Of a stretch of 64,000 bases of DNA, positions 8,468 through 64,000 are shown in pieces. Both the position numbers and the translations under genes were made by a program. The stretch's first letter is position 1. Each line of letters begins with the position of its first letter. The notes under the pieces are model-generated. The model searched no databases. It was given only the letters and a program-made list of their open reading frames with translations, and was not told the origin of the DNA. The stretch covers positions 1,240,001 to 1,304,000 of the forward strand of contig NC_135822.1 of the NCBI RefSeq assembly GCF_964213995.1, written 5' to 3'. This DNA is from Mustelus asterias. Taxonomy: Eukaryota.

Positions 8468-8661
8468 TTTACTTTTATTACCTGAGCCCACCTTTCAGAA
8501 TGTAAATGTGAAATTTACCCCCATCTCACATTATTACCAAGCTCTCCCTAGGTAAACACTTGCTCTGTTTATGCTAATCAACATATCCAAGCCTGAGTTC
8601 TCACAACTCAGATAATTTGTCTCTTTTCCATCTTTAAAAGCCTGTTTTCCTTTCAAACACA

Positions 8662-8745
8662 GTAAGAAGTCTCACAACACCAGGTTAAAGTCCAACAGGT
8701 TTATTTGGTAGCAAATACCATAAGCTTTCGGAGCTTTCCACATCA
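8662..8745. mobile_element. Penelope-like (family A) micro-insertion
   Basis: Matches the termini of the 33736-35459 element and ends in the inverted terminal piece TCCACATCA. Direct repeat TTCCTTTCAAACACA at 8647-8661 and 8746-8760. Confidence 0.8.
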
Positions 8746-9246
8746 TTCCTTTCAAACACACAGCCCCCAGAACACATTCCCAATTATTGAACTTCTTACT
8801 TTTCCGTTGTATTACAATGCCCTAACAATAGTGAGGATTGTAGGAACAGGAGGAGGTTGTTTAATTCCTCAACTCTGTTCTGTCATTCTATGAGATCATT
8901 GCTGACCTGTAGCCTAACTCCATATAATCCCTTTGTCCCATATTCCTTAATGCCCTCTGTTTATAAACACCTAGCAATCTCAGATTCAAATTAACTAATG
9001 ATCCAGCATTGAATGCAATTTTCAGGAGAGATTCTCAAACCTCTACTACATTTTGTATGAAATTCCAGAATGGATAAACCCTATTAACTCAACCTCCCCT
9101 CTCATCCCAAAAGGACGCATAGTACTCCTGGTATACCCTCAGCAAACTCTGTATAATAGTGGCAGGCTTCGCTCGCTCTTGTAATCCAACATTACTACAT
9201 CAACAACTGTATTCATATAACATCCTAAATTGGAAAAACAATCCAA

Positions 9247-9525
9247 GGTGGCAGCATGGTGACTTAGCACAGCGCCAGGTTCAATTCCTGGCTGGGTCAA
9301 TGTCTGTGGAGTCTGCACATTCTCCCTATACTGTATGGGTTTCCTCTGGGTGCTCCGGTTTCCTCCCATAGTCCAAAAGATGCGTTGGTTATGTCGATTG
9401 GCCATGCTAAATTCTCCCTCAGTGTACCCGAACAGGTGCTGGTGTGCGGCGACTAGGGGATTTTCACAGTAACCTCATTGCAGTGTTAATGTAAGCCTAC
9501 TTGTGGCACTAATAAAATAAACTTT
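9247..9525 (+). mobile_element. tRNA-derived V-SINE (HE1-like), tail type 2
   Basis: B-box-like GGTTCAATTCC, V-SINE core (gggtttcctc.gggtgctccggtttcctccc), tail cacagtaac.tcattgcagtgttaatgtaagcctacttgt. Confidence 0.8.
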
Positions 9526-10125
9526 AAAATTGAAGGTGCTTCGCATGGGCTAAGTTAAAGAGAATACACTGACTCGGACATTCACATTTCCGGTGTAATA
9601 ACTCCATTCTGCTGTATTTGACTTCAGCGAAAACTGGATTTGATTTGGCACAGTATCTCTGATAAATAAGCTGAAATAAGTTAAAATAACCCAAAGCAAA
9701 TCAAATCCATTTCCATTTGAGCTCCGTCCAGGCCACTGCACTGCATTCCAAACGCTGAAACATTGTCAGCATCCTCGCTATCTCCAACTCCCAGTAATTT
9801 CTCCCAGCATTATCCAGTCTCTCACTGTCTCCATCCCCCAGCCCAATCCATTCTCAATCCTGGTTTGAAATTCCCCCTGTTAAAACCTGCCACTTTCTCC
9901 AGCTCTCTCTCTGAAGGGCTGTTGGAGCTGATGAGAATATTTGGACCTTCACAGATAATACTTAAAATAAAAAACCAATTAAGATGACAATTAAAGATTT
10001 GTTGGATTGAAAAAGGGGCAGTCGCCAGTGTTATTTTGTTGGGACATCAAAGGGATTAAAGGGAGAGGAGTTTGTGAGTCTGACACAGGATTCTAACGCT
10101 ACATCCTGCCGTGAGCACCGCCCTG

Positions 10126-10131
10126 TATAAA
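10126..10131 (+). promoter_or_regulatory. TATA box of the TCR V promoter
   Basis: TATAAA lies 41 bp upstream of the leader ATG (first base to first base). Confidence 0.5.
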
Positions 10132-10166
10132 GGAGCTCTCCCTGTGTTAACCCAGTTTGTGTGAAG

Positions 10167-10212
10167 ATGCAATCCGAACCATTCACTGTCTTCATCTTTC
10201 TGTCATTGGCAG
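10167..10212 (+). CDS. TRBV: TCR V segment leader exon (L-part1)
   Basis: ATG..MQSEPFTVFIFLSLA-G|gtgag: a 46-nt hydrophobic exon with the phase-1 donor typical of antigen-receptor leaders. Confidence 0.85.
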
Positions 10213-10372
10213 GTGAGTATTTCAGTAGTTTAGCAGTGAGGGTTCCAATTGTACAATACACTTTATTTGAGAAGTTACGCTTCCATTGACTAAGGAAATG
10301 CTTCTGTTTATAATCAAACGTTTCATAATTCTCGGAATTTCCGTGATTAATCTGAATGTTTTCCTTATTTAG

Positions 10373-10675
10373 GCGCCGCTCCCGACAATATTGTCACCCA
10401 ATCTCCTCCTGCGACAATGTTTGTGGGGCAGGTTGTGGAAATAAGCTGCACCCAGACCAGCAACTGGGATTACATGTACTGGTACAAGCAGATTCCGGGA
10501 GGAAGCCTGAACTTCATCCTGTATGTTCAGCAAGCATTTGAAAGCCAGAACCCGTTTACCTCGGAAATTCCAGCGAGATTCAATGTTTCTCGGGCAGAGA
10601 TTCGCAACTGCAGCCTAGTAATCAACTCACTCCGGCTGAGTGACAGTGGGCTGTATTTCTGCGCTGCTAGTTTCA
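10373..10675 (+). CDS. TRBV: T-cell receptor variable gene segment, most likely beta chain
   Basis: tttag acceptor, in frame with the leader: GAAPDNIVTQSP..VEISCTQTSNWDYMYWYKQIPG..RFNVSR..SLRLSDSGLYFCAAS. Canonical Cys-Trp-Cys Ig V-set. YMYWYKQ, RFNVSR and CAAS are TRBV-like. Followed by an RSS. Confidence 0.85.
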
Positions 10676-10713
10676 CACAGCGAGGCAAACAGGAGTGAGT
10701 TCATACAAAAACA
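10676..10713 (+). other. V(D)J recombination signal sequence (23-class; 22-bp spacer)
   Basis: Heptamer CACAGCG 10676-10682, spacer 10683-10704, nonamer ACAAAAACA 10705-10713. Confidence 0.9.
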
Positions 10714-10754
10714 TCACTCACAACTGAACCCTGCCTCAACACAGACTTGCTTCC

Positions 10755-11563
10755 CGCTGAGTCTAAAACCAGAGGACACAATCTCAGAGTAAGACTGAGC
10801 TGAGGAGGAATTTCTTTACTCAAGAGGGTGGTGAATCTTTGGAATTCTCTACTCCAGAGGACTGTGGAAGTTAAATCATTGAACATGTTCAAGTCAGACA
10901 TGATAGATTTCTGAAAACTAATGACACCAAGGGATTGTGGGGAAAATAGTGTGAGACCTAGGTGACCAGCCAGGGTAGTGGGTGCCTGGAATTCACTGCC
11001 CGAGTTGATGGTGGAGGCAGAGATTCTAAACTCTTTAACAAGTACCTGGATCTGCACCTTAAGTGCTGTAAGCTACAGGGCTATGGGTCCGGTGCAGGAA
11101 GATGGGATTAGAAAGGGCACCTTGGTGTCATTGGTCTGGCATGGACACAATAGGCTGAATGGTCTCCTTCTGTGCTGTAGCTTTTCTATTCTGTTTGAAG
11201 GTGAAACCGGATCAATGGGCTGAATGGCCTACTCTTGGCCCAAGTTCCTATGTTCTTCAGTCGATGGTGTAATTTTGCAGACATTTCAAGGTTATAATCT
11301 TGAATCTTATAAAGTTTTTTCGGAATTGCTATATGTAATTTTGTGGAAAGTGGTTAGACATCAGCAATCCTAGTTCTAAGGTTGGGTCATTGAATTCATT
11401 CAGGCTTGAGTTTGAGAGATGTTTAATTGATCAGGGTTGGGGGGTATTGAAGGGTTATGGTGGGCAGACAGGAAAGTGGAGTTGGCAGTACAATCAGATC
11501 AGCCATGACCTTGCCAATGCTGGAGCAGGCTTGAAGGTTGGAATGGCCTTCTCCTTCTCCTAA
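10755..11563 (+). mobile_element. Nested CR1 3'-end fragments
   Basis: Motifs RVVNLWNSLP / AWNSLPE and CR1 tails (ggctgaatggcct...ttcctatgtt). Confidence 0.75.
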
Positions 11564-12442
11564 TGTTATGGACCAGATCAGAAAGTCCAAGGTATATTAT
11601 GTAGTTAGCCTAGACACTAATCATTTTTGATTTTGGCATTAGTGTGAGAACAAAGTGTTCCACTCCAGGTGTGATTCTATTCACCCACTAGGAAGCTTTT
11701 ATGAAAACAAAATTTATTTACCAACACAGTTCAAATGTACCAAAAAGAATTAGCATAATCTTTACCAATTGAAATACTTAAACAGAACAAGGTATAATTC
11801 TTAACTGCTAGTTAGTTCTATTAGTTTCAATTTAAGCAATATCCCCATAGACATAAACTCCTCTTAAGAATCAGTTAATAAGACACACAGGATTACATGA
11901 ACTTTCAGTCCTCCAGCCATTTTACCCCTCTAGACAGAGGTACAGCGAGACACCCATCTTCTGATTCGCAGACAGCAGCCTCCAGAGGAAGAGGAAAACC
12001 TATCTTCACAAAGCAGAACTCCAGGGAGGGAGAAGGAGAAAACAGCTCCTGCATTTTGCAGACCTTTGGAGATATATCTATCTTCCAGCAGGTCCCAGAC
12101 TTCAATATCCAGAAAGAGAGAGAGAGAACAAGAGCTACTGCTCTTTTCAAATTCAAATTGCAACTGCTTGCTTTTTTACTCTCTGTAAGCCTATCCACAC
12201 ACATGATTCTCTTGTCAATCAACCTAATCAAACCCTACTCTGAAAACCCAAGAGGATAACCCTAACATAACAGATTAAAACAAACACTCTAATAATTAGG
12301 AAGAATTAACCTACTGCAGTATCAACAGGTGGCCTGTCAGTTGTGCACAATTCAATATCATTAAACAGAGTTGAAATAAAAACACAATCTTCACCAGAAA
12401 CATGATACAAAATACATTTCTTAAAGGCACAGTATTATCACA
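11564..12442 (-). mobile_element. Solo LTR-like element
   Basis: TGTTA...TCACA termini, near-TSD ctaa/ttaa, inserted in a CR1 tail, related to 4190-4939. Confidence 0.6.
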
Positions 12443-12569
12443 TTAACTCATGAATATCTATATCCTATATTCTGAAGTAAGGAACAAAAATGGAAAATTC
12501 TGCAAACACTCAGCAGGCCAATCAGCATCTGAGGAGGAATCCGAGAAATGTTTTTTTTAGCAACACTGT

Positions 12570-12643
12570 TCCGAAAGCTAGTGGCTTTTGCTACCAAATA
12601 AACCTGTTGGACTTTAACCTGGTGTTGTTAGACTTCTTACTGT
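12570..12643 (+). mobile_element. Penelope-like (family A) terminal fragment
   Basis: ccgaaagct...gctaccaaataaacctgttggactttaacctggtgttgtt matches 35390-35457. Confidence 0.8.
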
Positions 12644-14624
12644 ATTCAGAATGAAATGCAGAATAAAAACAAGACGACAAATACAGAAAGGACTATTGAA
12701 AGGGTGCATTAAGCTTTTGGGGACTTCAACAAATGAAGTTCTGTTATGACTTAATACATATACATACAGAGAATAAATGAGATTAATCATTTCCCTTCTA
12801 AAGTCAAAAATCCATTCTACGTCCACTTTCCCCTGGATCTTGATAACCACGAGAATTATCATTGACTGTGCTGCTTTGATAACATTTACCATAAAACACC
12901 AAACTGCAGAACTCCTTATCTGCCAAGATCAACCTTCCACCTCTTGTAACCACTAGAGAACACAAAGTTGATATCTAACTCTAAACAAGATGTGTAAATA
13001 TCATTGTTAACAAGGTTGTGTACAGTATCTGGGGATGGAAAATCCAAACCATGCATTTGGTAGAATAATTATTAGAAACTGGGAAAGGTCTAATTGGCTA
13101 ATCAAATTCATTCATTTTTAATGAGTCTCATCCCACCTTTCACCGTGTTGCACAACCCTTTCCCTCTCCAGAAATACGTTCCCATTGCCTCTGAAATCCT
13201 TCCCAACTGTTTACTTCTGAAACTTGATTCCTGTTGTCTATTGCATTTTCTTTTCTGGATTATTTTCAAAATGAGAAGGCAGTCAGGCAGAACTTTCTCT
13301 GGGGTGCATCTGCATTTGCTGCTGCTGATGTAATAATCAATTTATCGAGATCAGCTTTGAGAATTTCCTTTACGATCTTCAAACATTCTGTGATGCGAAG
13401 CCGATACATCTTCTCCACAAAAGGGACAAGCATGACTTCCTTCCTCATAACAAAATCAAGGACAATATCCTCCCTACGATTAGGCAACTACAACTGCCAA
13501 GAAAGCATGTTTAAGTGTTTCGTAACAGGAAAGACCTCTATCAGGTCAGACCTCAGCTTCCTCTTCCAGAATGTTCAATCTTTTTAAATATTTATAACCT
13601 CTCAGTTCTAGCAGATATTTTTTTTAATGTTTCTGTGCCTCAAATGTATGCACTGTACTCAAACTGTGGTCTGACCAATGTTCTCTACAGGTTTGACATA
13701 ACTTTCCAACTATTGGTAATATAAAAGCTAAATACTGTGGATGCTAGAAATCTGGAATAAAAACAAAAAACACTGAATATATTCATGAAGTCTGGTAGCA
13801 TCTGGAGAGAGAGAAACATTTCAGGTTATAGCCTGTCATTGTAACTGATGTTCCCTGGCACTTAATTCTATTCTTCTAGAATAATGTAAAGTAAATGCAT
13901 CCCGAATAATGGATTTCGTAATAATCTCTGGAAATGGTGCAAATTCCATAGATTAATCAGATTTTTAAAATCGCCTTGGAAATCTTCCATGCAAATTACA
14001 TATCAAGTGAGTTTGAGCAGCCTCGCTACAGCACAGAATTCCTGCCATTTCTTATGTCTTCCCATTGGATTTCTTTATTAATCTCACCCTTTGATTTTCG
14101 TATCTTAGTCTCAGCACACATCTATTTATATTCTTATTCTGTGTGTCACAATAATTATATTTCATTTATAATATAGCACTGAGTACTGATGGTCAATGTG
14201 GAATGCCACAGGAGATAAACTAACATTTTCAAGAATAAGATTTGCAAAAAGTAGTTCTCAAAGTTTTTTTTAAGGTAAGAAAATACAAGTGGAATAATGA
14301 ATAAAATTTTGGAATTAGAGATATGTACAAAATTATCACTCTTTAGAAATGTGGCTGCATGCATAAGATGGACAGGAAATGGGGTTAAGAGATGGGACAA
14401 CAATATATCCAAAGGAATGATATTGTGAGTGATGGGGAAATCAATATGAGCTGACATTACTGTGTATTTTATTCTTTCATGGGATTGTCACTGGCTGGGT
14501 CAACATTGTTATCCACCCCTTATTGCCCTTCAGATGGTGGTGCTGTTAAGGCCACTCAAATCCTGCTAGCTGTTTCAATTGGTTCTGCAGTCAGCTCCCA
14601 ACATTCCTGTTTTGTTACAATGCC

Positions 14625-14673
14625 ATGATGTGGAGATGCCAGCGTTAACCAGGTGTTGTTAAAACTCTTACTG
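14625..14673. mobile_element. Penelope-like (family A) 49-bp fold-back micro-insertion
   Basis: Two pieces from opposite strands, with a perfect 13-bp TSD TTGTTACAATGCC (14612-14624, 14674-14686). Confidence 0.8.
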
Positions 14674-15358
14674 TTGTTACAATGCCCACAGACACTGGTA
14701 ACTTTTTTTAAGAATTGAATCTCCCAGCAGCCGCCAGAAATTACTGAATTACACACCTTAAGACTTTTACAAACTAAAGTCAACATAATCTAACGTTCTT
14801 AACAGACAAGGAATGCACCAAAATACAGAATTGGTATTTCCATATTAACTAATTAACACAATTGAAAAACCTCTTACAACTCCTTTTACTGTGCACTGCC
14901 CTCTGGCAGCTGTGTAATACCAGATCAAGTTGCAAGTTACTCTCAGCTTTGCGGTAAGATCACTTCTTTCTCCAAGTTAGTACCAGGTTGCAGCATCCTT
15001 GGAAAATTGCTCAACTCAGTGTGAGAATTCCGAAACCAACTTTCACCAATAGGACCCACCTCAGTGACTCCTTAAACGTCCAAATGTCTGTCCCCTTTGT
15101 CTCGAACAGAAAAGCAACGTTTACAAACATTCTGCTGGTTGTTAACAGGGCAGCGGTTCACTGCAGTCTCTGCTTGGTTCCTCTCTCCAGATTCCATTCT
15201 TTATTCCAGTTCTGTTCTCTGTGTGGGGAAACTCTCACTCGCTTCTCAATAGGTATCCCGTCGGGTTCCTTTCCCAATAACAAGGGACCAATTCTCCGAC
15301 AGAGGTTTGGTATACCTGTCACCCCACCCTCTCCAGACAGTCTGTTTCACAGAATCTT

Positions 15359-15509
15359 GATGTGGAGATGCCGGCGTTGGACTGGGGTAAATACAGTAAG
15401 AGTTTTAACAACACCAGGTTAAAGTCCTGCAGGAGGCAAGCTGTGGGGGCATTTGCTACCAAATAAACCTGTTGGACTTTAACCTGGTGTTGTTAAAACT
15501 CTTACTGTG
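15359..15509. mobile_element. Penelope-like (family A) fold-back micro-insertion
   Basis: Inverted termini, with a perfect 13-bp TSD TTCACAGAATCTT (15346-15358, 15510-15522). Confidence 0.85.
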
Positions 15510-16147
15510 TTCACAGAATCTTCACAGGGCAGGAGGGGGCCATTCGGCCCGTCCACCTGTACTAATTACATTAATTGAGACATTTTTAAAACATATAAAA
15601 TCCAAAGTTCGTCGCAGTTTAAACTCGGCAGCCATTCTCTAAACGGAATGAACAGATGCTGAGAGATGCAGACAGAAGCATGGCCACCATTCTTTGGATT
15701 CAGTTTCAGAGGAAGCGGTTGGGGGGAGAGTGGCTGAATTCTCAGCGCCAATTACCCCCTCCCAGGGCCATTCCTCTTCACCAATGAGAAACAAAGCTGC
15801 CGCAAGATTATGTCTCTCCAGGCAGTGTGGGTGGGGACAAGATCCTCCCCTGAACATCCACCCGCCCCGCATTCACCGATTTACAAAGAAACCCACCTGA
15901 GGAGTTCAGACACTGAAATAAAGCGTCGCCCAGTGTCCTCAGCCTGAACTGCAAACAGCCTGTGAACAAACTCTGGATTAACTGTGACATTTCTGCTCAT
16001 TCCCATTGGGACCTCCCCAAATCTCTGCTTTAATGTTGTTAACAGCTGTAACATAGCCAGGCTTTACAACATCTCCCCTGGGTATCCAACGTACACTAGA
16101 CATTTGGGACATTTCAGCGGCATGTGTCCGTGTGTCCCCCACCAATA

Positions 16148-20895: not shown

Positions 20896-21106
20896 TCATA
20901 TTGTGTGAAAGGCATTCGGAGCTGACACTGTACAGCAGTTGTTGGATGTTAACAATAGTCACTAGTTAGCTGATGAAGATATTTCCAGCTCTTTATGTAA
21001 AGTAATGAGGTTTCTTCACGTTTATACCATATTCAGTGAGAGCAGGAATTAAATCCTCCATGGTGAGGGTGTACTTTTTGTCCTAAAAACAACAGAATGC
21101 ATTTAA
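20896..21106 (-). pseudogene. TAF10: Duplicate of the TAF10 terminal exon (acceptor, 90-nt CDS at 20993-21082, 97 nt of 3' UTR)
   Basis: 211 bp with no visible mismatch to 22404-22614 (offset 1508 bp). Confidence 0.9.
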
Positions 21107-21345: not shown

Positions 21346-22500
21346 GTAAGAATTGGACATTTATAGAATGGAGGAATCTTTCTTAATTCAAGACTGCAAA
21401 TCAAAGTAAATTTGCAGTTGTGACTAAACATTTTTAAATGTAATAAGCCCTTACTCCTAAAAGGAGCAAAACCACTCACTCACTGAACTCATATAAAGGT
21501 TCCCGAAAGCTGTCAGAAATGCTATGGTAAAACAGATAGAGAATCCAAGGCAGTTAAAAGACAAATCTAATGGTTACCTGAACTTATAGAAAATGATAGA
21601 AATTAAACTTCTAAGCTTTAAAAAAGTGAGACCAATTTAAACAAAGATTAGATCAACTAATTTCATTTAAAAGATCCCAATTTTAAAGAAATGGTAATTA
21701 TTTGGTGGACCTTGTTTTAGAGAATCAGATATAACCGAGTAGAACAAGTTTAAATCCATACACCTGTTCTGATCAATAATCTGAAGCTGCAGTTTCAAAT
21801 TAAATAATAAACTTTAAGCAAGAACTTCAAATGATCTTATTCTCTCATGGGCCTAACTTTTTTTCCTTCCAGGTTAGTTTAAATGAGCTGGAATATCTGA
21901 TGTTAAAGAAAAGCAGAAGCTGGCTTGGAATTTTTTCCAAATACAAGGGAAGGTTGGCTAATTTCTCCTCAAAGAAAATAAGTTCACTACACTTTTGTTT
22001 TTAAAACAAGAACAGATTTACAATTTGAAATGCACCATATGAAAAGCATGCAACTCCACTTGAAAATAATGTGGCTATCCTCTTACTGGCTGCTAACCCT
22101 AGCTTGCTACATTTGAAAAACTATTATACAGAACATTTCCTAAAGGTGATAATTTTCCAGCTTAAGTTCTAACTGATCCTGAACAGGTTTACAGAAATGA
22201 GACAATATCTTCAAAACCCATTGTATACAGATCAAAAATTTTTTTCAAACCTATCATCACAAGTAATAATTCAAAAGGAAATGCGAGAATCAGTGAATAA
22301 TGAAGCCCTCCAAACGATGATCAAATGTTGGATGCAGATTCGGAACCACTTTCGAGCTCGTCAAATCGGAAAACTCAACTTGTGGCATATTTCTTTTCCA
22401 CCATCATATTGTGTGAAAGGCATTCGGAGCTGACACTGTACAGCAGTTGTTGGATGTTAACAATAGTCACTAGTTAGCTGATGAAGATATTTCCAGCTCT

Positions 22501-22590
22501 TTATGTAAAGTAATGAGGTTTCTTCACGTTTATACCATATTCAGTGAGAGCAGGAATTAAATCCTCCATGGTGAGGGTGTACTTTTTGTC
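22501..22590 (-). CDS. TAF10: TAF10 exon 5
   Basis: ttttag|DKKYTLTMEDLIPALTEYGINVKKPHYFT*. Confidence 0.93.
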   Translation of the reverse strand, partial: DKKYTLTMEDLIPALTEYGINVKKPHYFT

Positions 22591-25500
22591 CTAAAAACAA
22601 CAGAATGCATTTAAACAATGACATTGAAAGCAGAAAGTAACAGCTTAGAATACATATCTCCAAGTCCAAATTTCAACCATCTACAAATAAAAAATACTTG
22701 GATGTTTTTTCTTTCACTTGCTCCGTTAAGACCAGACAAAATAGAAACTAATTCTGGGAACCAAAAGATATCTTCAAGGGGATATTGAAAACATTTTGGA
22801 ATGGACAAAAGTGGCAGTTAATGGAACTCAACAACTGCCATTGTGGAGTGGTTATATTATCAGTTCATGGTTAGTTAGCTCAGTTGGCTAGATATTTAGT
22901 GTGTGGTTCAGAATAACACCAATAGAGCAGGTTTGATACCTCAGCTGCAATGAGAAGACTTGGACCTGCCTCTTCACCAACCCCGAGAGTGGAAGGCAAT
23001 GGCAAACCATTGCTGATAAAACCCACAAAGGGAACAGCTCAGGCTGAAGCATTAATAGACAATGAGTCAAGGACCTGCCTTCAGGCTGAGCACACTAGTG
23101 TGAAATGATTCATTTTGGTAGGAAGAACATAGACTATATAAAATAATGAGCAGAGTTCTGATGGGAGTGCAGGAGCAGAGTGCGTGCAAATATGCAGAAA
23201 TCAATGAAGGTGACAGGACAGGTTGAAACTGTGGGTAAAGTACACATATCCTTCTTGAGTTTTTTGCCCAAAGGCAGGTCCTTGGTGATTATTTACTGAA
23301 GTGTAGCAAGCACCACAACTTTTACTATGGGTAGGGCAAGGCGGCCCAGTATCTACCTCAACTGGAATGGGAATCTAACCCAGTGCTGTTGGCATGAATC
23401 CAATCTGCATTCTAGCCCACCGAGCTAAAGGAAAACCTAGGCTTGATTTAGTGCAGCATAAAGTATGTTAAAGTTGCACAGAACACTGGTTCAGCCTATC
23501 TTGGGTCTGGGTGACATACTTGTGATCAATGACATCTGTCTGATTTCCCTCCTGTTTTAGGATGCTTTGTACCTGCTCATAGACATTATACTGGAGTCCC
23601 TTTCGCAGCCACAGAAGCACCTATCTGTGCACCTGACTATTGAATCTCCTGCCACTATTGCTTTGGCCACTGCTGTTGCTGTCCCCTGATGGATATTCCT
23701 CATCAGTATCCAAAACGACATACTTGTCAGATAAGGGGACAACCATAGAAGACCTCTGCACTGGCTGCCTACTCCATCTGGCGATCACCCATCTATCTTC
23801 CTGCACCGAAGGATGTGGGTGAGATCCTTAATGAATACTTTGCATTGGTATTCACAAAGGAGAGGGACATGTTGATTGATGGAGTTTCGGAGGGATATGT
23901 AAACCCTCTAGAGCAAGTCATTACGAGGGACAAAGTGTTAGGTGAATTAAAAGGCATTAAGGTAGACAAATCCCCAGAACCAGATGGCATCTATCCCAGA
24001 TTACTGAGGGAGACAAGCGAGGAAATTGCTGGGCCTCTAACAGAAATCTTTGTTTCCTCGTTGGCCACTGGTGAGGTCAGTAAGAAGTCTTACAACACCA
24101 GGTTAAACACTGGTGAGGTCCCAGAGGATTGGAGGATAGCCAATGTTGTCCCTTTATTTAAGAAGGGTAGCAAGGATAACCTGGGTCATTATAGGCCAGT
24201 GAGCTTGATATCAGTGATAGTGAAATTGTTGGAGAAGATTCTTAGAGATAGGATCTATGCACATTTGGAACTGAATGGTCTTATTAGCGACAGACAACAT
24301 GGTTTTGTATGAGGGAGGTCATGTCTCACTAATTTAATTGAGTTTTTTCAGGTGACAAAAATGATTGATGAGGGAAGGGCTGTGGATGTTGTCTACCTGG
24401 ACTTTAGTAAAGCATTTGGCAAGGTCCCTCATGGCAGGTTGGTGCAAAAGGATAAATCACACGAGATCAAGGGTGAACTAGCTAGATGGATTCAGAACTG
24501 GCTTGGCCATAGAAGACAGAGGGTAGCGGTGGAAGGGTGTTTTTCTGAATGGAGGTCTGTAACTAGTGGTGTTCCACAGGGATCAGTGCTGGGACCTCAT
24601 ATATATATATAAAAAATATATTATATATAAAAATGACTTGGAACAAAAAACGTAGCTGGTTTGATTAGCAAGTTTGCGGATGATACTAAGACCGCTGGAG
24701 TTGCAGATAGTGATGCAGATTGTCAGGGAATACAGCAGGATATAGACAGGCTGGAAAATTGGACGGAGAAATGGCAGATGGAATTTAATCTGGACAAATG
24801 AGAGGTAGATTCAATTCAGGTGGGAGCTATAAAATAAATGGCAGAACCATCAGGAGCATAGACACACAGAGAGATCTGGGAGTACAGGTCCACAGGTCCA
24901 TAAAAGTGGTAGCACAGGTGGAAAAGGTGGTGAAGAAAGCATATGGCATGCTTGCCTTCATCGGATGGGGCATCGAATATAAAGTTGGCAAATTATGTTA
25001 CAGTTGTATAAAACATTGGTGAGGCCACATTTGGAATACTGTGTCCAATTCTGGTCACCACACTACCAGAAGGATGTGGAAGCTTTGGAGAGAGTACAGA
25101 AAAGGTTTAGCAGGATGTTGCCTGGTATGGAGGGTATTAGCTATGAGGAGAGATTGAATAAACTGGGGTTGTTCTCCCTGGAAAGACGGAGGCTGAGGGG
25201 CGACCTGAAAGAAGGTTATAAAAGTATGAGGGACATAGACAGAGTGAACAGTTGGAAGCTTTTCCCCAGGGCAGAAATGACAATTACAAGGGGCCACAAG
25301 TTCAAGGTAAGGGGGGAAAGGTTCAATATAGAAGTGCGGGGGGGAGCTTTTTTTTCCAGGCCCCCACCACCCTCACAGAGGGTGGTGGGGCCTGGAATGC
25401 ATTGGCAAATGAGGTGGTTGAGGCAGTTGCGTGAGCGACATTTAAGACTAATCTGGATAGGCACGGGAAATAGAGGGATACAGGCTGTTGGTCCAGATAG

Positions 25501-29401: not shown

Positions 29402-29560
29402 GTTGAGGGCGGCAGTCTCTCGCTCCTTCAGGCCGCCATCTTCCGTCCCTCCGCAAACTACTTCCCCGGTCCGCGGATAAACCCTTCCGGCCCCGCCCGA
29501 GCCGCACAGCCCCGGAACATGGTTCCGCCTGAGAGTGGGAGCCAGTATGGTCAGAACCCA
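29270..29560 (-). promoter_or_regulatory. TAF10 CpG-island promoter with YY1/TISU and ETS motifs
   Basis: CpG-rich. GAAGATGGCGGC at 29443-29432, CCGGAA motifs and a GC box. Confidence 0.7.
29323..29401 (-). CDS. TAF10: TAF10 exon 1 (coding part)
   Basis: MNSENPQLSLAAGATAAATGSGAPGS-G|gtgggt within a CpG island. Phase 1 matches exon 2. Confidence 0.75.
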
Positions 29561-30293: not shown

Positions 30294-30355
30294 AACCTGG
30301 TGTTGTGAGAGTTCTTACTGTGTTTACCCCAGTCCAACGCCGGCATCTCCACATC
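30294..30355 (+). mobile_element. Penelope-like (family A) terminal fragment with tail
   Basis: aacctggtgttgtgag...ccagtccaacgccggcatctccacatc is the reverse complement of 33736-33797. Confidence 0.8.
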
Positions 30356-31879: not shown

Positions 31880-33249
31880 AACCTAACGGGAAAAGACAGT
31901 TTGGACCAGTGCTCTTATTTCCCAGTTTTTGCTGGTGTTCCATTTTAAGGTATACAAGACCAGTTTTCCCATTTTTACTATTTTTTTTCCTTCTGGAAAG
32001 ACTTTAACATGGATAGATTGAAAAAACTTAGACTCATTAGAGCAGATCACAAATAGATTTTATGAAGATGTTAAAAATCATGAGAGCTCTGGACAGGATG
32101 CATGGGGAAAATCTGTTCCCATTGGTATAATGGTCAAGAATCAGAGGCCACCGATGTAAGAATAGCAAAGGAACCAGGAGCAATGAAAATCTTCTTTACA
32201 CAAGTAATTAGGATCTGGAAGGCACTGCCTGAGAATCTTGTGGCCTCTTTTAAGGTAGACAGGTTTAATCATGGCTTTCAAATGGGAATTCATAATTATT
32301 TGTAGAAAAAAAATTGTAAGTCTACAGGGGAAAAGCAGCAAAGTAGGATTAGCTAAATTGGTCTTACAGAGATCTGGCATGGTCCATAAGAACTAGGAGC
32401 CATTCAGCCCCTTGAGCCTGCTCCGCCATTCAATACGATCATGGCTGATCTCATGTTGGTCTCATCTCCACCTTCCTGCCCACTCCCCACAAACCTTCAT
32501 CTTTCTACTAATTAAAAACCTATCGATCTCCTCCTTAAATGTGTTCCGGCGTCCACTGCACTCTGGGGTAGAGAATTCCACAGATTCACCACCCTTTTGA
32601 GTGAATAATTCCTCCTCATTTCTGTTTTAAATCTGCCATCCTTTATCCTAAAACTATGGACTCTTATTCTATATGCATGAAGGGCTAAATACCTTTCTCT
32701 CTGTTGTAACCACTCTATGATTCTAAGTGTGGCCACAAACAACATTTCCTGTCTCTGGAACTGTGACCGTGATACATTTTTCTACTCGATTTCTCTGCAG
32801 CGTTTGGCATGGTTAACATATTAATATATTGTTCTCCTCGAACACCTCTTCTCTGATGACCCTGATTTCTTTATTTATTCGATAATAGCCACATCCCGTA
32901 AATGAATAAATGTTAAAACAGGATATTGAAGGAAGCGGGAATGGAAATTGCAGGGGCCATAACCTTGCAGCCTTCTCTAGACTTAGAGTGGTGCCAGAGG
33001 ACTTACCCACTGGGCATCTGTGTACTGACGGAGAAAGAAAGAGATGGATTTGTCTCTCCTTTTGAAATTGCAGCTTGCCAACGCTGAAGACTGAAAGTAA
33101 GAAGGGCAGGAAAAGTGATTAGAATATTAAATCTCTTCGGCTCGATGCTGGATAAAACATTGTGTTCTGTTGGGCTAAGACAGTTGCTGCAATCTCACTC
33201 AAAATCTTCACTTGTCTGATTTCAGCTTCCTAATCTTCCTCCCTTAACC

Positions 33250-33387
33250 TGATGTGGAGATGCCAGCATTGCACTGGGGTGGGCACAGCAAGAAGTCTTA
33301 CAACACCAGGTTAAAGTTCTGGAACAGCCCCCACAAAAGCTTGTGACTCCAAATAAACCTGTTGGACTTTAACCTGGTGTTGTGAGA
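33250..33387. mobile_element. Penelope-like (family A) fold-back micro-insertion, older
   Basis: Inverted termini and a degenerate 13-bp TSD TCCCTTAACCTGA / TCCATTAAACTGA. Confidence 0.75.
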
Positions 33388-33828
33388 TCCATTAAACTGA
33401 GCATTGACAGCCATGCCATCAACTATATCTGCACTAGATTCTAGAGCTTCTTCCTTAAACTCCATGGCCAGTTTTTCTACCTTGAAGGCCCCTTCTTAAA
33501 ACCAACCTCAACCTCTTTGATCAAGCTTTTTGATAACTCTGCTAATAGGTTTAGCATCTAATCTTAAAATTCTGTTTGTGAAGCATTTGGAGGGCATTTC
33601 TCTACATTAATGATACAATATCATTGCAACTTGTTCTCTGGCTAAATGGTTATAATTACTTCCCTGATTATCCACTCATTGAAGGTTACATGTTGTAGAT
33701 ACATTCCAGATTGTTTTCCTGTGTCTCTCATCCCAGATGTGGAGATGCCGGCGTTGGACTGGGGTGAACACAGTAAGAGTTTTAAGAACACCAGGTTAAA
33801 GTCCAACAGGTTTATTTGGTAGCAAATA

Positions 33829-33865
33829 CCATTAGCTTTCGGAGCGCTGCTCCTTCGTCAGATGG
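33829..33865 (-). ncRNA. Minimal type I hammerhead ribozyme (PLE terminal repeat)
   Basis: Reverse complement of the motif at 35367-35403. Confidence 0.7.
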
Positions 33866-35366
33866 AGTGGAAATGTGCTCTCAAACAGGGCACAGTGACA
33901 CAAAATCAAGTTACAGCATACTGATTAGAATGCGAATCCCTACAGCCAACCAGATCTTAAAGATACAGACAATGTGGGTGGAGGGAGCATTAAGCACAGG
34001 TTAAAGAGATGTGTATTGTCTCCAGGCAGGATAGCCCGCAAGTCCAGGAGGCAAGCTGTGGGGGTTACTGATAATGTGACATAAATCCAACATCCCGGTT
34101 TAGGCCGTCCTCACGTGTGCGGAACTTGGCTATCAGTTTCTGCTCAGCAACTCTGCGCTGTCGTGTGTCGTGAAGGCCGCCTTGGAGAACACTTACCTGA
34201 AGATCAGAGGCTGAATGCCCGTGACTGCTGAAGTGCTCCCCCACAGGAAGAGAACAGTCTTGCCTGGTGATTGTCGAGCGGTGTTCATTCATCCGTTGTC
34301 GTAGCGTCTGCATGGTTTCCCCAATGTACCATGCCTCGGGACATCCTTTCCTGCAGCGTATCAGGTAGACAACGTTGGCCGAGTTGCAAGAGTAGTACCG
34401 TGTACCTGGTAGATGGTGTTCTCACATGGGATGATGGCATCCGTGTTGATGAATCCGTGTCAGTTCCGACGCGCCACAGCGAAAAACCGCACTGACCTCC
34501 TCAGAAGACAAACACGGGACACGGTGGACAGAGTACCCTTCGTCGTCCAGTACTTCCCCGGAGTGGAGAAGCTACGGCATCTCCTTCGGAGCCTTCAAGA
34601 TGTCATTGATGAAGACGAACATCTTGCCAAGGCCATCCCCACACCTCCACTTCTTGCCTTCAAACAACCGCGCAACCTCAAACAGACCATTGTCCGCAGC
34701 AAACTACCCAGCCTTCAGGAGAACAGTGACCACGACACCATACAACCCTGCCATAGCAACCTCTGCAAGACGTGCGAATCATCGACACGGATGCCATCAT
34801 CTCACGTGAGAACACCATCTACCAGGTACACGGTACCTACTCTTGCAACTCGGCCAACGTTGTCTACCCGATTCGCTGCAGGAAAGGATGTCCCGAGGCA
34901 TGGTACATTGGGGAAACCATGCAGACGCTTCGACAACGGATGAATGAACACCGCTCGACAATCACCAGGCAAGACTGTTCTCTTCCTGTGGGGGAGCACT
35001 TCAGCAGTCACGGGCATTCGGCCTCTGACCTTCGGGTAAGCCTTCTCCAAGGCGGCCTTCATGACACACGACAGCGCAGAGTTGCTGAGCAGAAACTGAT
35101 AGCCAAGTTCCGCACACGTGAGGACGGCCTAAACCGAGATGTTGGATTTATGTCACATTATCAGTAACCCCCACAGCTTGCCTCCTGGACTTGCGGGCTA
35201 TCCTGTCTGGAGACAATACACATCTCTTTAACCTGTGCTTAATGCTCCCTCCACCCACATTGTCTGTATCTTTAAGACCTGGTTGGCTGTCGGGATTCGC
35301 ATTCTAATCAGTATTCTGTAACTTGATTTTGTGTCTCTGTGCCCTGTTTGTGAGCAGATTTCCACT

Positions 35367-35403
35367 CCATCTGACGAAGGAGCAGCGCTCCGAAAGCTAA
35401 TGG
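35367..35403 (+). ncRNA. Minimal type I hammerhead ribozyme (PLE terminal repeat)
   Basis: CCAT-CTGACGA-a-GGAGC agc GCTCC-GAAA-GC-TA-ATGG: core CUGANGA/GAAA, stem II, palindromic AGCU stem III, stem I CCAU/AUGG. Confidence 0.72.
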
Positions 35404-35489
35404 TATTTGCTACCAAATAAACCTGTTGGACTTTAACCTGGTGTTGTTAAAACTCTTCCTCTCTCAGCCCATCCATGCCTTAGTCCAGG

Positions 35490-50700: not shown

Positions 50701-53700
50701 TCTTCGAAAATGTGACTAAACATATTGACGAAGGGAAAGCGGTAGATGTGGTTTATATGGATTTTAGCAAGGCGTTCGATAAGGTCCCCCGTGCAAGGCT
50801 TCTAGAAAAAGTGAGAGGGCATGGGATCCAAAGGGCTGCTGCCCTGTGGATCCAGAACTGGCTTGGCCAAAGGAGGCAGAGAGTGTGTATAGATGGGTCT
50901 TTCTCTAATTGGAGGTCGGTCACCAGTGGTGTGCCCCAGGGATCTGTTCTGGGACCCTTGCTGTCATTTTCATAAATGACCTGGATGAGGAAGTGGAGGG
51001 ATGGGTTGGTAAGTTTGCCGACGACACGAAGGTTGGTGGGGTTGTGGATAGTCTGGAGGGATGTCAGAAGTTACAGAGGGACATAGATAGGATGCAAGAC
51101 TGGGCGGACAAGTGGCAGATGGACTTCAACCCAGATAAATGCGTAGTGGTCCATTTTGGCAGGTCAAATGGGATGAAGGAGTACAATATAAAGGGAAAGA
51201 CTCTTAGTATTGTGGACGATCAGAAGGACCTTGGGGTCCGGGTCCATAGGACTCTAAAATTGGCCCCGCAGGTGGAGGAGGTGGTCAAGAAGGCGTATGG
51301 TGTGCTGGCCTTAATCAATCGAGGGATTGAGTTTAGGAGTCCGGGGATAATGATGCAGCTATATAAGACCCTCCTAAGACCCCACTTGGAGTACTATGCT
51401 CAGTTCTGGTCGCCTCATTACAGGAAGGATGTGGAAAAGGTTGAAAGGATGCAGAGGCGATTTACAAGGATGTTGCCTGGATTGAGTGGCATGCCTTATG
51501 AGGATAGGCTGAGGGAGCTCGGTCTTTTCTCCTTGGAGAGACGTAGGATGAGAGGAGACCGAATAGAGGTATATAAGATGTTGAGAGGCATAGATCGGGT
51601 GGACTGTCAGAGGCTTTTTCCCAGGGTGGAAATGGCTGCTACGAGAGGACACAGGTTTAAGGTGCTGGGGGGTAGGTACAGGGGAAATGTTAGGGGGAAG
51701 TTTCTCACACAGAGGGTGGTGGGCGAGTGGAATCGGCTGCCGTCAGTGGTGGTGGAGGCAAACTCAATAGGGTCTTTTAAGAGACTCCTGGATGAGTACA
51801 TGGGACTTAATAGGATGGAGGGTTATAGATAGGCCTAAAAGGTAGGGATATGTTCGGCACAACTTGTGGGGCCGGAGGGCCTGTTTTGTGCTGTAGTTTT
51901 CTATGTTTCTGTGAAAGTGGTAGATGTGGTATATTTAGATTTTCAGAAAGCTTTAGAGAAGGTGTCGTGCAAGAGATTAGTAAACATCGGAGCAGGAGTA
52001 GGCCATTCAGCCCTTCGAGCCTGCTTCACCATTCAACATGATCTTGACTGATCCTCTATCTCAATGCCTCACTCCAGCTCTCTTCCCATACCCACTGAAA
52101 CTTTTAGAGTCTGGAAACCTATCTTTTTCCTTCTTGAGTATATTCAGAGCTCCACAGCTTTTAGTGTTAGAGAATTCCACAGCTTCACCACAAAATCAGA
52201 GTACATGGGATTGGGACGAATATTCTAGCATGGATTGAGAACTAGTTAACGAACAGAAAACAGAGACTAGGAATGAATGAATCATTTTCAGATTAGCAAG
52301 CTGTGATTAGCCAGTACTACAAGGATCAGTATTTGGGCCCCAGCTATTCACAATCGATTCACAACCACCACCCACCTGGAAGTTCCCCTCCGGGCTACTC
52401 CTCATCCTGACTGGGAAATATATCGGCCGTTCCTTCATTGCTGTGGGATCAAAATCCTGGAACTCCTTCCCTAACTGCACAGTGGGTGTACCTACACCAC
52501 AGAGACTGCAGCAGTTCAAGAAGGCAACTTACGTTCTCACGGATAATTACAGACGAGCGATAAATGCCGGCGTAGCCAGCTAAACTCAGTCCTGTGAGTG
52601 AATTTTTTAAAAATCAATGATTTGGATGTGGGAATTAAATGTAATATTTCCAAGTTTGCATACTTCGAATACAAAAATGCTTCAAGGAGATTTGGAGAAG
52701 ATAAGCAAGTGGGCAAAAATTTGCCAGATGGAATACAATGTGGAGAAATATGAGGTTATCCACTTTGGTAGGAAAAACAGAATAACAGAATATTTTTAAA
52801 TATCGAGAGGCATGGAAGTATTGAATTTTAAAGGGACCTGGATGTCCTTGTTCATGAGTCACTGAAAGCTAACATGCAGGTACAGCAAGCAATTAAAAAG
52901 ATAAAAAGATTTGAGTATAGGAATAAAAATGTCTTCTTGCAATTAAATAGATCCTTAGCAAGATCGCACTTGTGCAGTTTTGATCTCCTTACCTAAGAAA
53001 AGATAAACTTGCCATAGAGGGAGTGCAACAAAGGTTCAAAAGATCGTAGAATCTTTACAATGCAGAAGGAGGGCATTCGGCCCATTGAATCTGCACAGAA
53101 TCCGTGAAAAAGCTATTTTACACTCTCTCTGTCATAAATATATTTTAGTGGCTCCTCATAATATTTTTTTCTAACATCCCATGTTAATATTGCAATAGTG
53201 ATGTGGAGATGCCGGCGTTGGACTGGGGTAAACACAGTAAGAAGTCCAACAGGTTTATTTGGTAGCAAAAGCCACGTAGCTTTTGAAAGCTCGTGGCTTT
53301 TGCTACCAAATAAACCTGTTGGACTTTAACCCGGTGTTGTTAGACTTCTTACAATATTGCAATAGCCATGCGACTGCCTCCACGTTTAAGCTGGCCATTC
53401 TTCTGTTACAACAGCTTGGGTTTCTATAGCTCCTAGTAATGTTGAAAAGAACAGCCCAAGGCTCTTAGTCATTGTCATACAGCACAGGAAAGGCCCTTCG
53501 GCCCATCTTCATAGAAATCATAGAAACCCTACAGTGCAGAAAGAGGCCACTCGGCCCATTGAGTCTGCACCGACCATGATCCCACCCAGGCCCTATGCCC
53601 ATATCCCTGCATATTTACCAACTAGCCCCTCTAACCTACGCATCCCAGGACACTAAGGGGAATTTAGCATGGCCAATTAACCTAATCCGCACATCTTTGG

Positions 53701-61100: not shown

Positions 61101-61658
61101 AGTAGACTGATAAAGGAAAGTCTGGTTCTGAGAAGTGTAAAGAGATCTGCACTATGCCCCGCATGTTATTTGTCATGGTGTCCATGGAAGCTAAATGGTC
61201 GTTGGTTGTTTTGGAGATCTGGGATTTTGACTTCAAAGTTTTTCACCTAAGATCCTCACCTAGGCCAATAGGAAATTTCCGTGCTATGAATGAGCTAATC
61301 TAAAATCATTTCTGCTCTGAAAAGAAATCATTTTGATACAGATATTTATTTTTAAACCTCACCTTGGGACAAAAATATAGCCCCGGTGAACAGCTGGCTT
61401 ATGAGCATGTTTCTGAATCTGAATCAAAAAAAGACTGTCCAGAAAATGAGCCTTTTATTTGTAACTATAATCTTGGTTTAATGGTCTTTCTTAATAACCA
61501 AACTTCAAGTTATTGATTTTCATTTTTTCCAAAAGGAATCTGCATTGTTAAATTCCAGTTAAAGCAAAGCTGAGTGTTACTACTGCAGCTTATATTCAGT
61601 TTATATTTGTTTTTCAGACCACAGCATTTTCTAATGAGCCAAATGGACAGTGTCAATT

Positions 61659-61675
61659 AATAAATTTGAAATAAA
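61659..61675 (+). terminator. PPIH polyadenylation signals (tandem AATAAA)
   Basis: AATAAA at 61659-61664 and 61670-61675, followed by a GT-rich tract. Confidence 0.65.
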
Positions 61676-61979
61676 ACTTTTGACTACGTTATTTAGCGTG
61701 TGAGTGGTGATAATTCCAAGTATTAACCATTTTATGGAATTCCTTTTGCAAAGGATTGGAACCCAAATACTGTATGAATTGGGAAACAATTCTAAATTTC
61801 ATGTATCTCTGATATTCACAGCTAATATATTATAATTCTTTATTGAGTACTGACAGCAATTAGGAGGGAATTGGCCCAAAATAACTGGACAGGTAAGTTA
61901 ACAAATGAGCGGATGAATCGAGAATGGGAAGTCTTCAAATATAAAAGTACAAAATAAATACATTTCTAATCAGGCCAGA

Positions 61980-62885
61980 TGTAGTTTGAGTTAATGTAGT
62001 GTTAGAGTGCCATTTTGAGTACAAAGTGTTCATATAAGCCTTTCTCATATGTAATTGTTTTACTGCCATCTGTTGAGGGTTCTGAGCATGTGTGGGTTTT
62101 GGAGGGTTTTTCAGTCTGCAGGAGAGTGTTGCGTAAGCAAGATCTGTTTTACTAGTGCTCCTGTTTTGATCGTTACTACTGTTGTGCTGAGTTGCAGTTA
62201 TTGTTAAATCTTGTTATTTATATAAAGAAGGCCATTATTTAAACAACGCTTTTGATTACCCTTACTTGTGGTCTCAAGTTACCACATCCTTTTGGCAAAG
62301 AGGAGAAAATGACAAGAAAAGAAAACAAAGTTTTTCCATGTTCAGGGTGGCGATATGGAGTTGCGTACAGTGAACCACTATTTTCATCATGGGTTTATTC
62401 GATGGAATTTCAAGTTAGCAATACCATTGCTATGTTCGGGGCAGTTAGTGAGTTCAATGAGAGAAGCAAAGACTGGGCTGAATGATTGGAGAAGTTGCGG
62501 CATTTTTTAGCAAACGGAATGGAAGATGAGGGGAAGCAGCGTTCGATTGTTCTGTGTGTGTGGGACAAAGACTGAAGATGATGAGGGATCTGGCTATGCC
62601 ACAGAAGCCAGGGGAGATTTCGTTAGCAGATTTGAATGCTCTAGTCCAGAATCAACACAACTCAAAGCCCTTGGTCTTTGTGCAAAGATTAAGATTTTAT
62701 AGCCATTTTCAAAAAGGTTAATCGGTAGCTAACTTTGTGGCAGAATTATGCCTGCTTTCAGAACACTGATTTTGGAACAGTTTTAGAAGATATTCTCAGA
62801 GATAGGCTGGTCTGTGGCATTAGTGAGAACAGCATTCAGCTGATTGCTGAATGAAGGTGCACTCATGGCGTGGACAAGGTATTGG
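61980..62885 (+). mobile_element. Decayed Gypsy LTR retrotransposon: 5' LTR (~61980-62286), PBS-like site, gag relic
   Basis: TG...CA followed by TGGCAAAGAGG. Degenerate gag MFGAVSEFNE..DWAE...FVAEL..LSEH..FG..LEDILRDRLVCGI. Confidence 0.7.
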
Positions 62886-62887
62886 AA

Positions 62888-63928
62888 GCAAAGAACAATA
62901 CAGGAACAGGCCCTTAGGCCCTCCAAGTCTGCGCCGCTCATGTGCCCACTAGACCATTCTTTTGTATCCCTCTATGCCCAGTCTGTTCATGTGGCTATCT
63001 AGATAAGTCTTAAATGATCCCAGCGCGTCCGCCTCAATCACCTTGCTTGGCAGTGCATTCCAGACCCCCACCACCGTCTGTGTAAAATACATTCCCCTGA
63101 CATCTGTGTTGAACCTTGCCCCCCTCACCTTGAACCCATGACCCCTTGTGTTCGTCACCTCCGACCTGGGAAAAAGCTTCCCACTGTTCACCCTATCTAT
63201 GCCCTTCATAATTTTATACACCTCTATTAGGTCACCCCTCATCCTCTGTCTTTCCAGGGAGAACAACCTCAGTTTACCCAATCTCTCCTCATAACTAAGC
63301 CCCTTCATACCAGGCAACATCCTGGTAAACCTTCTCTGTACTCTCTCCAAAGCCTCCACGTCCTTCTGGTAGTGTGGCGACCAGAACTGGATGCAGTATT
63401 CCAAATGTGGTCTAACCAACATTCTATACAGCTGCAACATCATATGCCAATTTTTATATTCTATGCCCCGTCCAATAAAGGCAAGCATGCCATATGCCAC
63501 CTTCACCACCCTCTTCACCTGTGCTGCCATCTTTAAGGATCTGTGGACTTGTACACCCAGGTCCCTCTGTGTGTCTATACTCCTGATGGTTCTGCCATTT
63601 ATTGTATAGCTCCCCCTTACATTAGATCTACCGAAATGCATCACTTCGCATTTATCTGGATTAAATTCCATCTGCCATTTCTCCGCCCAATTTTCCAGCC
63701 TATCTATATCCTGCTGTATTCTCTGACAATGTTCATCACTATCCGCAACTCCAGCAATCTTTGTGTCATCCGCAAACTTACTGATCACACCAGCTACATC
63801 TTCCTCCAAATCATTTATATATGTCAGAAACAGCAGAGGTTCCAGTACAGAGCCCTGCGGAACACCACTAGTCCCAGACCTCCAACCGGAAAAAGACACC
63901 TCCACTGCTACCCTCTGTCTTCTATGGC
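62888..63928 (-). mobile_element. CR1 3' portion
   Basis: 333-aa ORF with [16 protein letters not shown] and LVRPHLEYC, plus a tail. Confidence 0.95.
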
Positions 63929-64000
63929 TAAACACAGTAAGAAGTCTCACAACACCAGGTTAAAGTCCAACAGGTTTATTTGGTAGCAAATACCATAAGC
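63929..64000 (-). mobile_element. Penelope-like (family A) terminal repeat, cut by the window edge
   Basis: Matches 8655-8725. Confidence 0.85.

Follow-up and report, generated by a model that had tools for sequence, protein, structure and literature searches.

Fold-back inserts of a Penelope-like element in Mustelus asterias: two recurrent ends, a 13-bp duplication and a probable paired nick

Introduction

How can a retrotransposon leave, within a single target-site duplication (TSD), two ends of its own that face outward, one of them longer than the other by a short tail? The question is raised by 64,000 nucleotides of Mustelus asterias DNA (contig NC_135822.1, positions 1,240,001 to 1,304,000, forward strand)—called here the window and numbered from its first letter—in which a Penelope-like element recurs as dead, mostly small fold-back inserts. 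Passages of PMC8557442 state the origin of the inverted copies and one-sided tails of Penelope-like elements as unresolved, and the only in vitro study, as far as its main text and methods go, leaves the later integration steps unvalidated (PMC11167929).

Our answer is that a symmetric, likely dimeric enzyme probably nicks both strands 13 nt apart and primes reverse transcription (RT) from both ends. The architecture of the inserts is already known for this class; the symmetry of the target, the narrow TSD length and the rule by which the ends pair are points that we did not find in print, and their base is seven sites together with coarse genome-wide consensus lines. The inserts yield three sharp predictions (paired nicks 13 nt apart, a mirror-image target motif, a strict pairing of one tail end with one short end) that can be counted in any shark assembly.

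The ten inserts and their duplications

An earlier note on this DNA had reported ten insertions with the terminal sequence of a GIY-YIG element. BLAST of the 1.7-kb element against the window, together with 14-mer seeding, recovered ten copies of the terminal repeat, all of them where that note had placed them; apart from a two-seed match at 20679, the 14-mer scan of the window gave no further multi-seed cluster. Inserts are numbered I1 to I10 in window order, and d is the number of nucleotides from 33736 into the element, negative values lying beyond the tail. The tail end is the longer terminus, the short end the terminus that stops earlier. Two inserts lie in copies of a long interspersed element (LINE) that we take to be of the CR1 type.

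I1, 8647..8760, both orientations: 84-bp fold-back at 8662-8745, short arm on the left to d109, tail piece of ~10 nt on the right
I1 TSD, 8647-8661 and 8746-8760: exact, 15 bp, up to 7 letters common with the element
I2, 12570..12648, + strand: single sense arm with a short end, d ~107 to 33, no TSD
I2 microhomology, 12645-12648: 4 nt
I3, 14612..14686, both orientations: 49-bp insert at 14625-14673, exact 13-bp TSD (14612 and 14674)
I3 arms: tail arm to d19, short arm d63 to 35, non-overlapping
I4, 15346..15522, both orientations: 151-bp insert at 15359-15509, exact 13-bp TSD (15346 and 15510)
I4 parts: tail arm d0-68, 20-nt piece d309-328, short arm d94 to 33, with a 5-nt microhomology at the short end
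I5, 24066..24120, - strand: 29-bp single short arm at 24079-24107, exact 13-bp TSD (24066 and 24108), within a CR1-type LINE copy
I6, 30294..30355, + strand: single sense arm with the full tail, d61 to 0, no TSD found
I7, 33240..33400, both orientations: older fold-back at ~33250-33387, 13-bp TSD with 2 mismatches (33240 and 33388)
I7 arms: tail arm d0-66; short arm from ~d46 to at least d103, plus a piece near d321-328
I8, 33724..35471, both orientations: 1.72-kb insert at 33736-35459, 12-bp TSD with 1 mismatch (33724 and 35460)
I8 arms: antisense tail arm of ~720 nt, sense short arm of ~1000 nt
I8 inner joint, 34439-34446 and 34453-34460: 8-nt local duplication
I9, 53186..53365, both orientations: 154-bp insert at 53199-53352, exact 13-bp TSD (53186 and 53353), zero shared bases
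I9 arms: tail arm reaching d103, with 21 nt deleted inside it; short arm d104 to 37; palindromic centre
I10, 63919..64000, - strand: short arm from 63932 with a 3-nt microhomology at 63929-63931, in a CR1-type copy, running off the window end
I10 predicted TSD, 63919-63931

Direct repeats were sought at the boundaries of I1 to I9, the inserts that lie wholly within the window. A TSD of 12-15 bp bounds seven of the nine, five at 13 bp, which agrees with the four perfect 13-bp and three near or overlapping 12-15-bp duplications described before; the same search found none at I2 (12570) or I6 (30294). Among 3000 random boundary pairs treated with the same slack, an exact repeat of at least 13 bp turned up in 8, one of at least 12 bp with at most one mismatch in 17 and one of at least 13 bp with at most two mismatches in 40, so that the TSDs are far above chance. 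Letters shared by element and target, judged by inspection, permit a shorter true TSD at I1 (7-15 bp), I3 (11-13), I4 (7-13), I5 (12-13) and I7 (10-13); only the TSD of I9 (53186) is exactly 13 bp without any shared base.

The empty sites bear this out. Four of 24 listed public sequencing runs, coded here by X-numbers, were compared with 8300-16000. In one X1 contig 14611 is followed directly by 14674, the 62 missing bases being exactly I3 and one TSD copy; X5 and X11 also lack I3, with a net 66 and 70 bases removed. I4 is absent from X5 and X11 contigs, which skip 11 and 23 letters more than the expected 164; a 7-nt sequence occurs twice in its target, 11 nt apart, and may explain the X5 excess. 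For I1 the case is one of arithmetic only, an X1 contig that opens at 8746 having 203 further letters, which agree with an empty site, and for I2 both X1 and X5 contigs match from 12645 onward. Elsewhere in the window, a protein comparison shows that without I5 and one TSD copy the LINE frame aligns gap-free with its paralogue at 44290, and at I8 an X1 contig, which covers one side only, ceases to match at 33722. The single-copy empty site that the earlier note had proposed as a check is thus seen exactly at I3, approximately at I4 and by arithmetic at I1. The inserts are real insertions made through a staggered cut of ~13 nt, and related species lack them, so that they could serve as presence/absence markers. 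At 29-154 bp, repeat annotation may miss them.

Two recurrent ends

Tail ends fall at d 0 to -2 in seven copies, and short ends, counted on element-only letters, at d 32-39 in eight of nine, the ninth (33387, I7) lying at ~d46. In six inserts both termini are element ends that face outward, and in 6/6 a tail end is paired with a short end, for which 1.6% would be expected if the sites were picked independently. The earlier note had described both the six outward-facing pairs and their inequality, one end at the extreme terminus and the other ~30-45 nt earlier, and both descriptions hold. The tail piece of I1 (8735-8746) can be read in two ways, since it matches the tail at 11/12 letters and another part of the pseudo-long terminal repeat (pLTR) at 10/12.

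Tail of ~36 nt, 33736..33772, - strand: last bases of the 5' leader before the start codon of the open reading frame (ORF)

That note had placed the priming of one arm at the terminus of the RNA, and on this point it has to be corrected. The tail translates to ...RHLHI directly before the first Met of the ORF; in the relative P0035 the same five residues precede MTT, P0036 begins with MTT, and the consensus of the junction contigs continues into the first codons of the ORF. Both priming sites are therefore internal. A true 3' end of the RNA would suit the tightness of the tail ends, found in the seven copies and in hundreds of contigs alike; on the other hand a tail that runs straight into the first codons, a junction consensus that goes on into the ORF, inserts without poly(A), and start sites that are internal in vitro too (PMC11167929, main text) make priming at the terminus very improbable.

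Contigs covering 33450-34100 in four runs (X22, X1, X5, X13) were used for the junctions; the counts are of contigs among the loose-end rows listed, and contig depths are not taken as copy numbers. At the tail end the element is left before 33736, into unrelated flanks, by 565 contigs in X22, 864 in X5 and 762 in X13, with no X1 row among those listed; at the short end a variant subfamily is left before 33787 by 557 (X22), 454 (X1), 1170 (X5) and 918 (X13), and the short-end consensus fades at ~d31-35. Each of the two ends is thus repeated across the genome, hundreds of contigs in a run showing it, as the earlier note had proposed to check. The X22 contigs at the 33736 joints also contain direct partial tandems, one arm followed by another that starts at the tail, start codon included.

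The short site had been called fixed and internal. Internal it is; fixed it is not, for the ends spread over d32-39 and often share letters with the target. A microhomology of at least 3 nt (3-7 nt) occurs at 4/9 short ends (P 9e-6 on base composition, a value inflated by the choice of element variants and of two boundaries after the fact).

Arms that are often non-nested

The inner reach of the two arms, short versus tail, is 109 vs ~10 in I1, 63 vs 19 in I3, 94 vs 68 in I4 (or 328 if the 20-nt piece is counted), at least 103 vs 66 in I7, ~1035 vs 720 in I8 and 104 vs 103 in I9, so that in 5/6 the tail arm extends no deeper than the short arm. The arms of I1 and I3 share nothing; in I8 the tail arm has 36 nt absent from the short arm, which itself has ~315 nt absent from the tail arm. 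The arms overlap in 4/6, but neither contains the other in 3/6 (I1, I3, I8), so that in these three extra events would be needed to derive either arm from the other. Such non-nested arms are most simply read as primed from both 3' ends. The 13-nt staggered cut with both 3'-OH ends priming, put forward in the earlier note, thus stands for the cut, on the empty sites, and for the dual priming as this simplest reading; the arms joined after as little as 10-30 nt, of which it also spoke, are present.

A published alternative is self-priming: one cDNA strand snaps back and copies itself, and the endonuclease trims one end to leave the one-sided tail. Self-priming on antisense RNA was proposed for rotifer elements in the passages of PMC3846280, and those of PMC8557442 call the tail a likely product of endonuclease-mediated resolution. 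The zero-loop palindromic centre of I9 is what this reading predicts, and subfamily variants are common to both arms in I4, I8 and I9. However, a palindromic centre is found in only one of the six two-armed inserts, and the non-overlapping arms of I1 and I3, like the private sequence of each I8 arm, do not fit. Snap-back from the tail arm moreover predicts a tail arm at least as long as the short one, whereas the reverse is seen in 4/6 and one is level, and two start sites arise in vitro without trimming (PMC11167929, main text). We consider self-priming unlikely.

Inner ends cluster at d61-69 and d94-109; only I8 passes d328, and most inserts are shorter than 170 bp. The small hairpins might be the remains of long inverted elements that lost their centres later. 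Long inverted repeats are unstable, internal deletions do occur in I4, I7 and I9, and the empty sites show that the inserts are absent from relatives, not that they were born short. But the inner ends are clustered rather than random, I5 is a single 29-bp arm within an intact 13-bp TSD, and deletion leaves the ends, the TSD and the target motif unexplained; it therefore would at most blur the arm lengths, and as the origin of the hairpins we hold it to be improbable. Still further from the data is a non-autonomous family of miniature inverted-repeat type moving as a ready-made hairpin. Small size, inverted ends and high copy number would suit it, but all six hairpins differ in centre and length, their ends are asymmetric, and no fold-back centre recurs among the 15 joints listed; we give it almost no credit.

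The arms of I8 differ at 22/681 sites, and 2/9 of the differences in d39-364 match alleles common in X22. This is a weak hint (P 0.01-0.04) of two closely related templates. The local duplication at the inner joint of I8 (8 nt) resembles end-joining.

A mirror-image motif outside the duplication

Seven empty sites were rebuilt for a motif analysis. Each strand carries a TG 1-2 nt outside the TSD, which gives the mirror-image motif TG-N16-17-CA: TG lies in the two-position window at 12/14 half-sites against a background of 14.9% (P 8e-9), and 0/20000 random sets reached 12 with any dinucleotide in any two-position window within 10 nt. In each of the five sites that score on both sides TG and CA lie 16-17 nt apart, as they do at I1 with its 15-bp repeat. 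The earlier note mentions neither this motif nor the hammerhead core in the pLTR. Among half-sites outside the motif discovery 3/4 fit: I10 left, I10 right as read from the paralogue, and I2 right.

Genome-wide, the junction consensuses are A/T-rich except for a C at d-20 to -18 (X22, X5, X13); in X5 the consensus from d-20 to -15 reads C,C,T,T,G,G, and in X11 position -16 is a G. This C-T-G trace at d-20 to -15 stands at the position expected for a smeared motif beyond a 13-nt duplication.

The spacing bears on a second published view, in which the events are sequential: a first nick and its cDNA, then a second nick at a variable distance, primed by a second RNA (dual priming); the mode at 13 bp and the symmetry of the motif would then come from a single nickase that uses the same half-site twice, without any concerted dimer. 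This order and a variable TSD are what the passages of PMC8557442 favour, and TSDs of 8-10 bp are reported for rotifer copies in the source passages; single-arm inserts do exist (I2, I5, I6), and the differences between the I8 arms (22/681) hint at two templates. Yet the sequential order leaves unexplained both the narrow TG-to-CA spacing of 16-17 nt and the pairing of tail and short ends in 6/6, and to us it too is unlikely. Literature searches, judged by titles and the opening lines of abstracts, brought up no paper on a fixed 13-bp TSD, a palindromic target or an obligate pairing of tail and short ends for Penelope-like elements, and none of the three is mentioned in the passages of PMC11167929, PMC8557442, PMC3846280, PMC4209133, PMC2377424, PMC8969392, PMC2837659 and bioRxiv 10.64898/2026.07.22.740005.

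Identity of the element

ORF 3' remnant, 34461..35164, + strand: CX4CXXC linker and GIY-YIG endonuclease, a single frameshift near 34772, stop codon at 35162-35164
Putative minimal type I hammerhead core, pLTR, 35371..35403, + strand: found by pattern scan, d125-97, mirror copy at 33829-33861 on the - strand

The element is a Penelope-like retrotransposon that bears an endonuclease, as judged from its coding remnant: the sense arm of I8 carries the GIY-YIG remnant and the relatives carry an RT domain. The Pfam match of the GIY-YIG domain is weak (E 0.0013, 19.5 bits, below the 22.6 cut-off); its motifs and C-terminal position are present in the relatives, a C-x3-C lies between the two GIY-YIG motifs in the window frame and relatives alike, and H75 and H81 are conserved in the alignment. 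A CCHH motif with two cysteines between GIY and YIG is given as a trait of endonuclease-bearing Penelope-like elements in the passages of PMC8557442. The three best protein matches are Mustelus proteins, 91-94% identical. No RT domain occurs within the window, where the copy is truncated, but in P0005 (80% identical) and P0014 (64%) it lies in the same ORF upstream of the endonuclease. The CX4CXXC linker is found in the window frame and in P0001, P0005 and P0014. According to passages of PMC8557442 a CX2-5CxxC linker between RT and endonuclease marks Neptune and Nematis and is absent from Penelope/Poseidon; the family is thus probably of the Neptune type by its linker motif, Neptune being preferred over Nematis from vertebrate distribution. 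A microsatellite target, which is a tendency of Neptune and not a defining trait, was seen at 0/7 rebuilt targets.

The putative hammerhead core forms its stem II in the folds, with predicted cleavage after 35399 (d97), and an Rfam search found no hammerhead match in the pLTR. Folding of the pLTR end gave no significant structure (z -1.35 to 0.40), so that a stem around the short site is only a suggestion. We also considered arms ending at the hammerhead cut itself (d97) and rejected the idea, the nearby arm ends lying at d94 and d103-109.

In a number of shark gene models, among them septin 5a, XRCC5, USP8 and FAM210B, the endonuclease fragment of the element is annotated as an exon or isoform. 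A 22-nt pLTR motif had 0 matches in metagenome contigs and 0 in viral contigs; searched at the protein level, the metagenome contigs yielded 6 weak loci, 37-61% identical over 23-67 residues.

A second fold-back of Penelope type, its identity taken from its architecture and its sequence seemingly unrelated to the first, lies at 8222-8471, within 8207-8482; it has a 38-nt one-sided tail and an 11-15-bp duplication with 2 mismatches, and more than 1000 contigs per run leave it at 8471. Older single-arm relatives of this family, 70-75% identical, are found at 6826-6935, 12469-12536, 13722-13816 and 29155-29209.

Proposed mechanism

Taken together, these data would fit the following course. A predicted dimeric enzyme would nick the two strands of a loosely palindromic site ~13 nt apart; the two nicks would leave 13-nt 3' overhangs, their distance being set by one symmetric complex and not by a later, variably placed second nick. 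RT would then start at two internal sites, the start codon of the ORF and 32-39 nt upstream, the template being an RNA that extends into the ORF; with the 5' leader of a normal transcript as the primed region, arm length would be limited to ~330 nt. A few base pairs with the overhang may help to choose the upstream start, and the cDNA primed there would lead and usually get further. Both cDNAs would end prematurely, in many cases near d61-69 or at the putative hammerhead (d94-109), and their ends would be joined by a short microhomology or filler and then repaired. The two RTs may read one RNA or two, I8 hinting at two closely related templates.

In its most explicit form—a concerted double nick like that of a restriction enzyme, by a dimer that reads two TG half-sites 16-17 nt apart and leaves 13-nt 3' overhangs, with a main route that primes both, always one at the start codon and one ~35 nt upstream—the proposal remains tentative, and we would put it a little short of an even chance. 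If it holds, this one rule would give the inverted copy, the TSD and the one-sided tail of Penelope-like elements a common explanation.

Several observations pull the other way. The sites bounded by a TSD number only seven, all from one window, and I2 and I6 have none. The target motif was found post hoc; the half-site of I6 misses it by 2 nt, none is seen on the short side of I7 or on the tail side of I1 (the latter by one base), and the second Penelope-type family at 8222 lacks TG/CA. As to the arms, the tail arm of I4 outreaches the short arm if its 20-nt piece is counted, later loss could have un-nested arms since I4, I7 and I9 carry internal deletions, and I9 has the palindrome expected from self-priming. 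X22 may be the source sample of the window itself and is not independent for that reason. Lastly, the protein of an anole element (PAc), as described in the main text of PMC11167929, shows in vitro no strand bias in the use of its start sites and no homology between these and the cut DNA; such results do not by themselves yield a strict pairing of tail and short ends.

Other features of the window

CR1-type LINE copies, 43228-45760 and 49990-51913: 93-97% identical, 6.1 kb apart, with an inverted third copy at 38765-39560
GC-rich stretch, 29230-29520: may be a first exon or promoter of the host on the - strand
C-rich tandem array of a 30-bp unit, 29601-30040: adjoins the GC-rich stretch
Tandem repeat of a 31-bp unit, 35800-35971: 5.6 copies, 330 bp beyond I8; every copy contains a CCAAT-like box on the - strand
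Exact direct repeat of 211 nt, 20896-21106 and 22404-22614: 1508 bp apart, a recent duplication or an assembly artefact

Comparison with known systems

In the passages of PMC8557442, PMC3846280, PMC2377424 and PMC4209133 the inverted copy, the one-sided tail of 30-40 bp, the TSDs and the hammerhead are described, and in those of PMC2377424 a 34-bp repeat at the ORF start. The known complex insertions of Penelope-like elements are like those of the window in their inverted 5'-truncated copy, their tail at one end and at the pLTR/ORF junction, their TSD and their C-terminal GIY-YIG; the hammerhead in their pLTR has a putative counterpart in the window. They differ in their TSDs, which these passages give as 8-10 bp in rotifer copies and as "variable" (PMC8557442), whereas ours peak at 13 bp. 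The mirror-image motif outside the TSD, and inserts mostly shorter than 170 bp, also set the shark family apart, and its arms are often non-nested, which the published idea of self-priming does not predict. This putative hammerhead has its core motif, with a palindromic helix III, inside the pLTR, as known ones do; tandem arrays like those of retrozymes are not what the inserts form, most of them ending before the ribozyme or at it.

The nearest biochemical counterpart is PAc, the Poseidon protein of Anolis carolinensis, which in the main text of PMC11167929 nicks and extends both strands in vitro, is predicted to be a dimer and uses two internal RT start sites that bound the tail; cutting and extension on two strands, paired internal starts and a predicted dimer are what we propose here, and the account of the tail by two start sites is already in print there. 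The main text and methods of that paper give no nick spacing, TSD or pairing rule. As reported there, PAc belongs to the Poseidon clade, prefers AT-rich ATT sites, starts more than 100 nt inside the ORF and shows no homology to the cut DNA; by contrast the shark family has a linker of the Neptune type, starts at or just before the start codon, microhomology at 4/9 short ends and a TG/CA target.

L1 offers another parallel, with its twin priming and the dual priming postulated in passages of PMC2837659. There too both overhangs prime opposite cDNAs within one TSD, and the inner joint shows little or no microhomology. In these passages, however, L1 starts at its poly(A), its second site is variable, the two pieces flank an internal deletion and the TSD measures 7-20 bp. 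The inserts of the window resemble twin or dual priming in their proposed mechanism but are not L1 products; they have no poly(A) and overlapping arms in 4/6, both starts are stereotyped and internal, and what is a side route for L1 seems to be the main route of the shark family.

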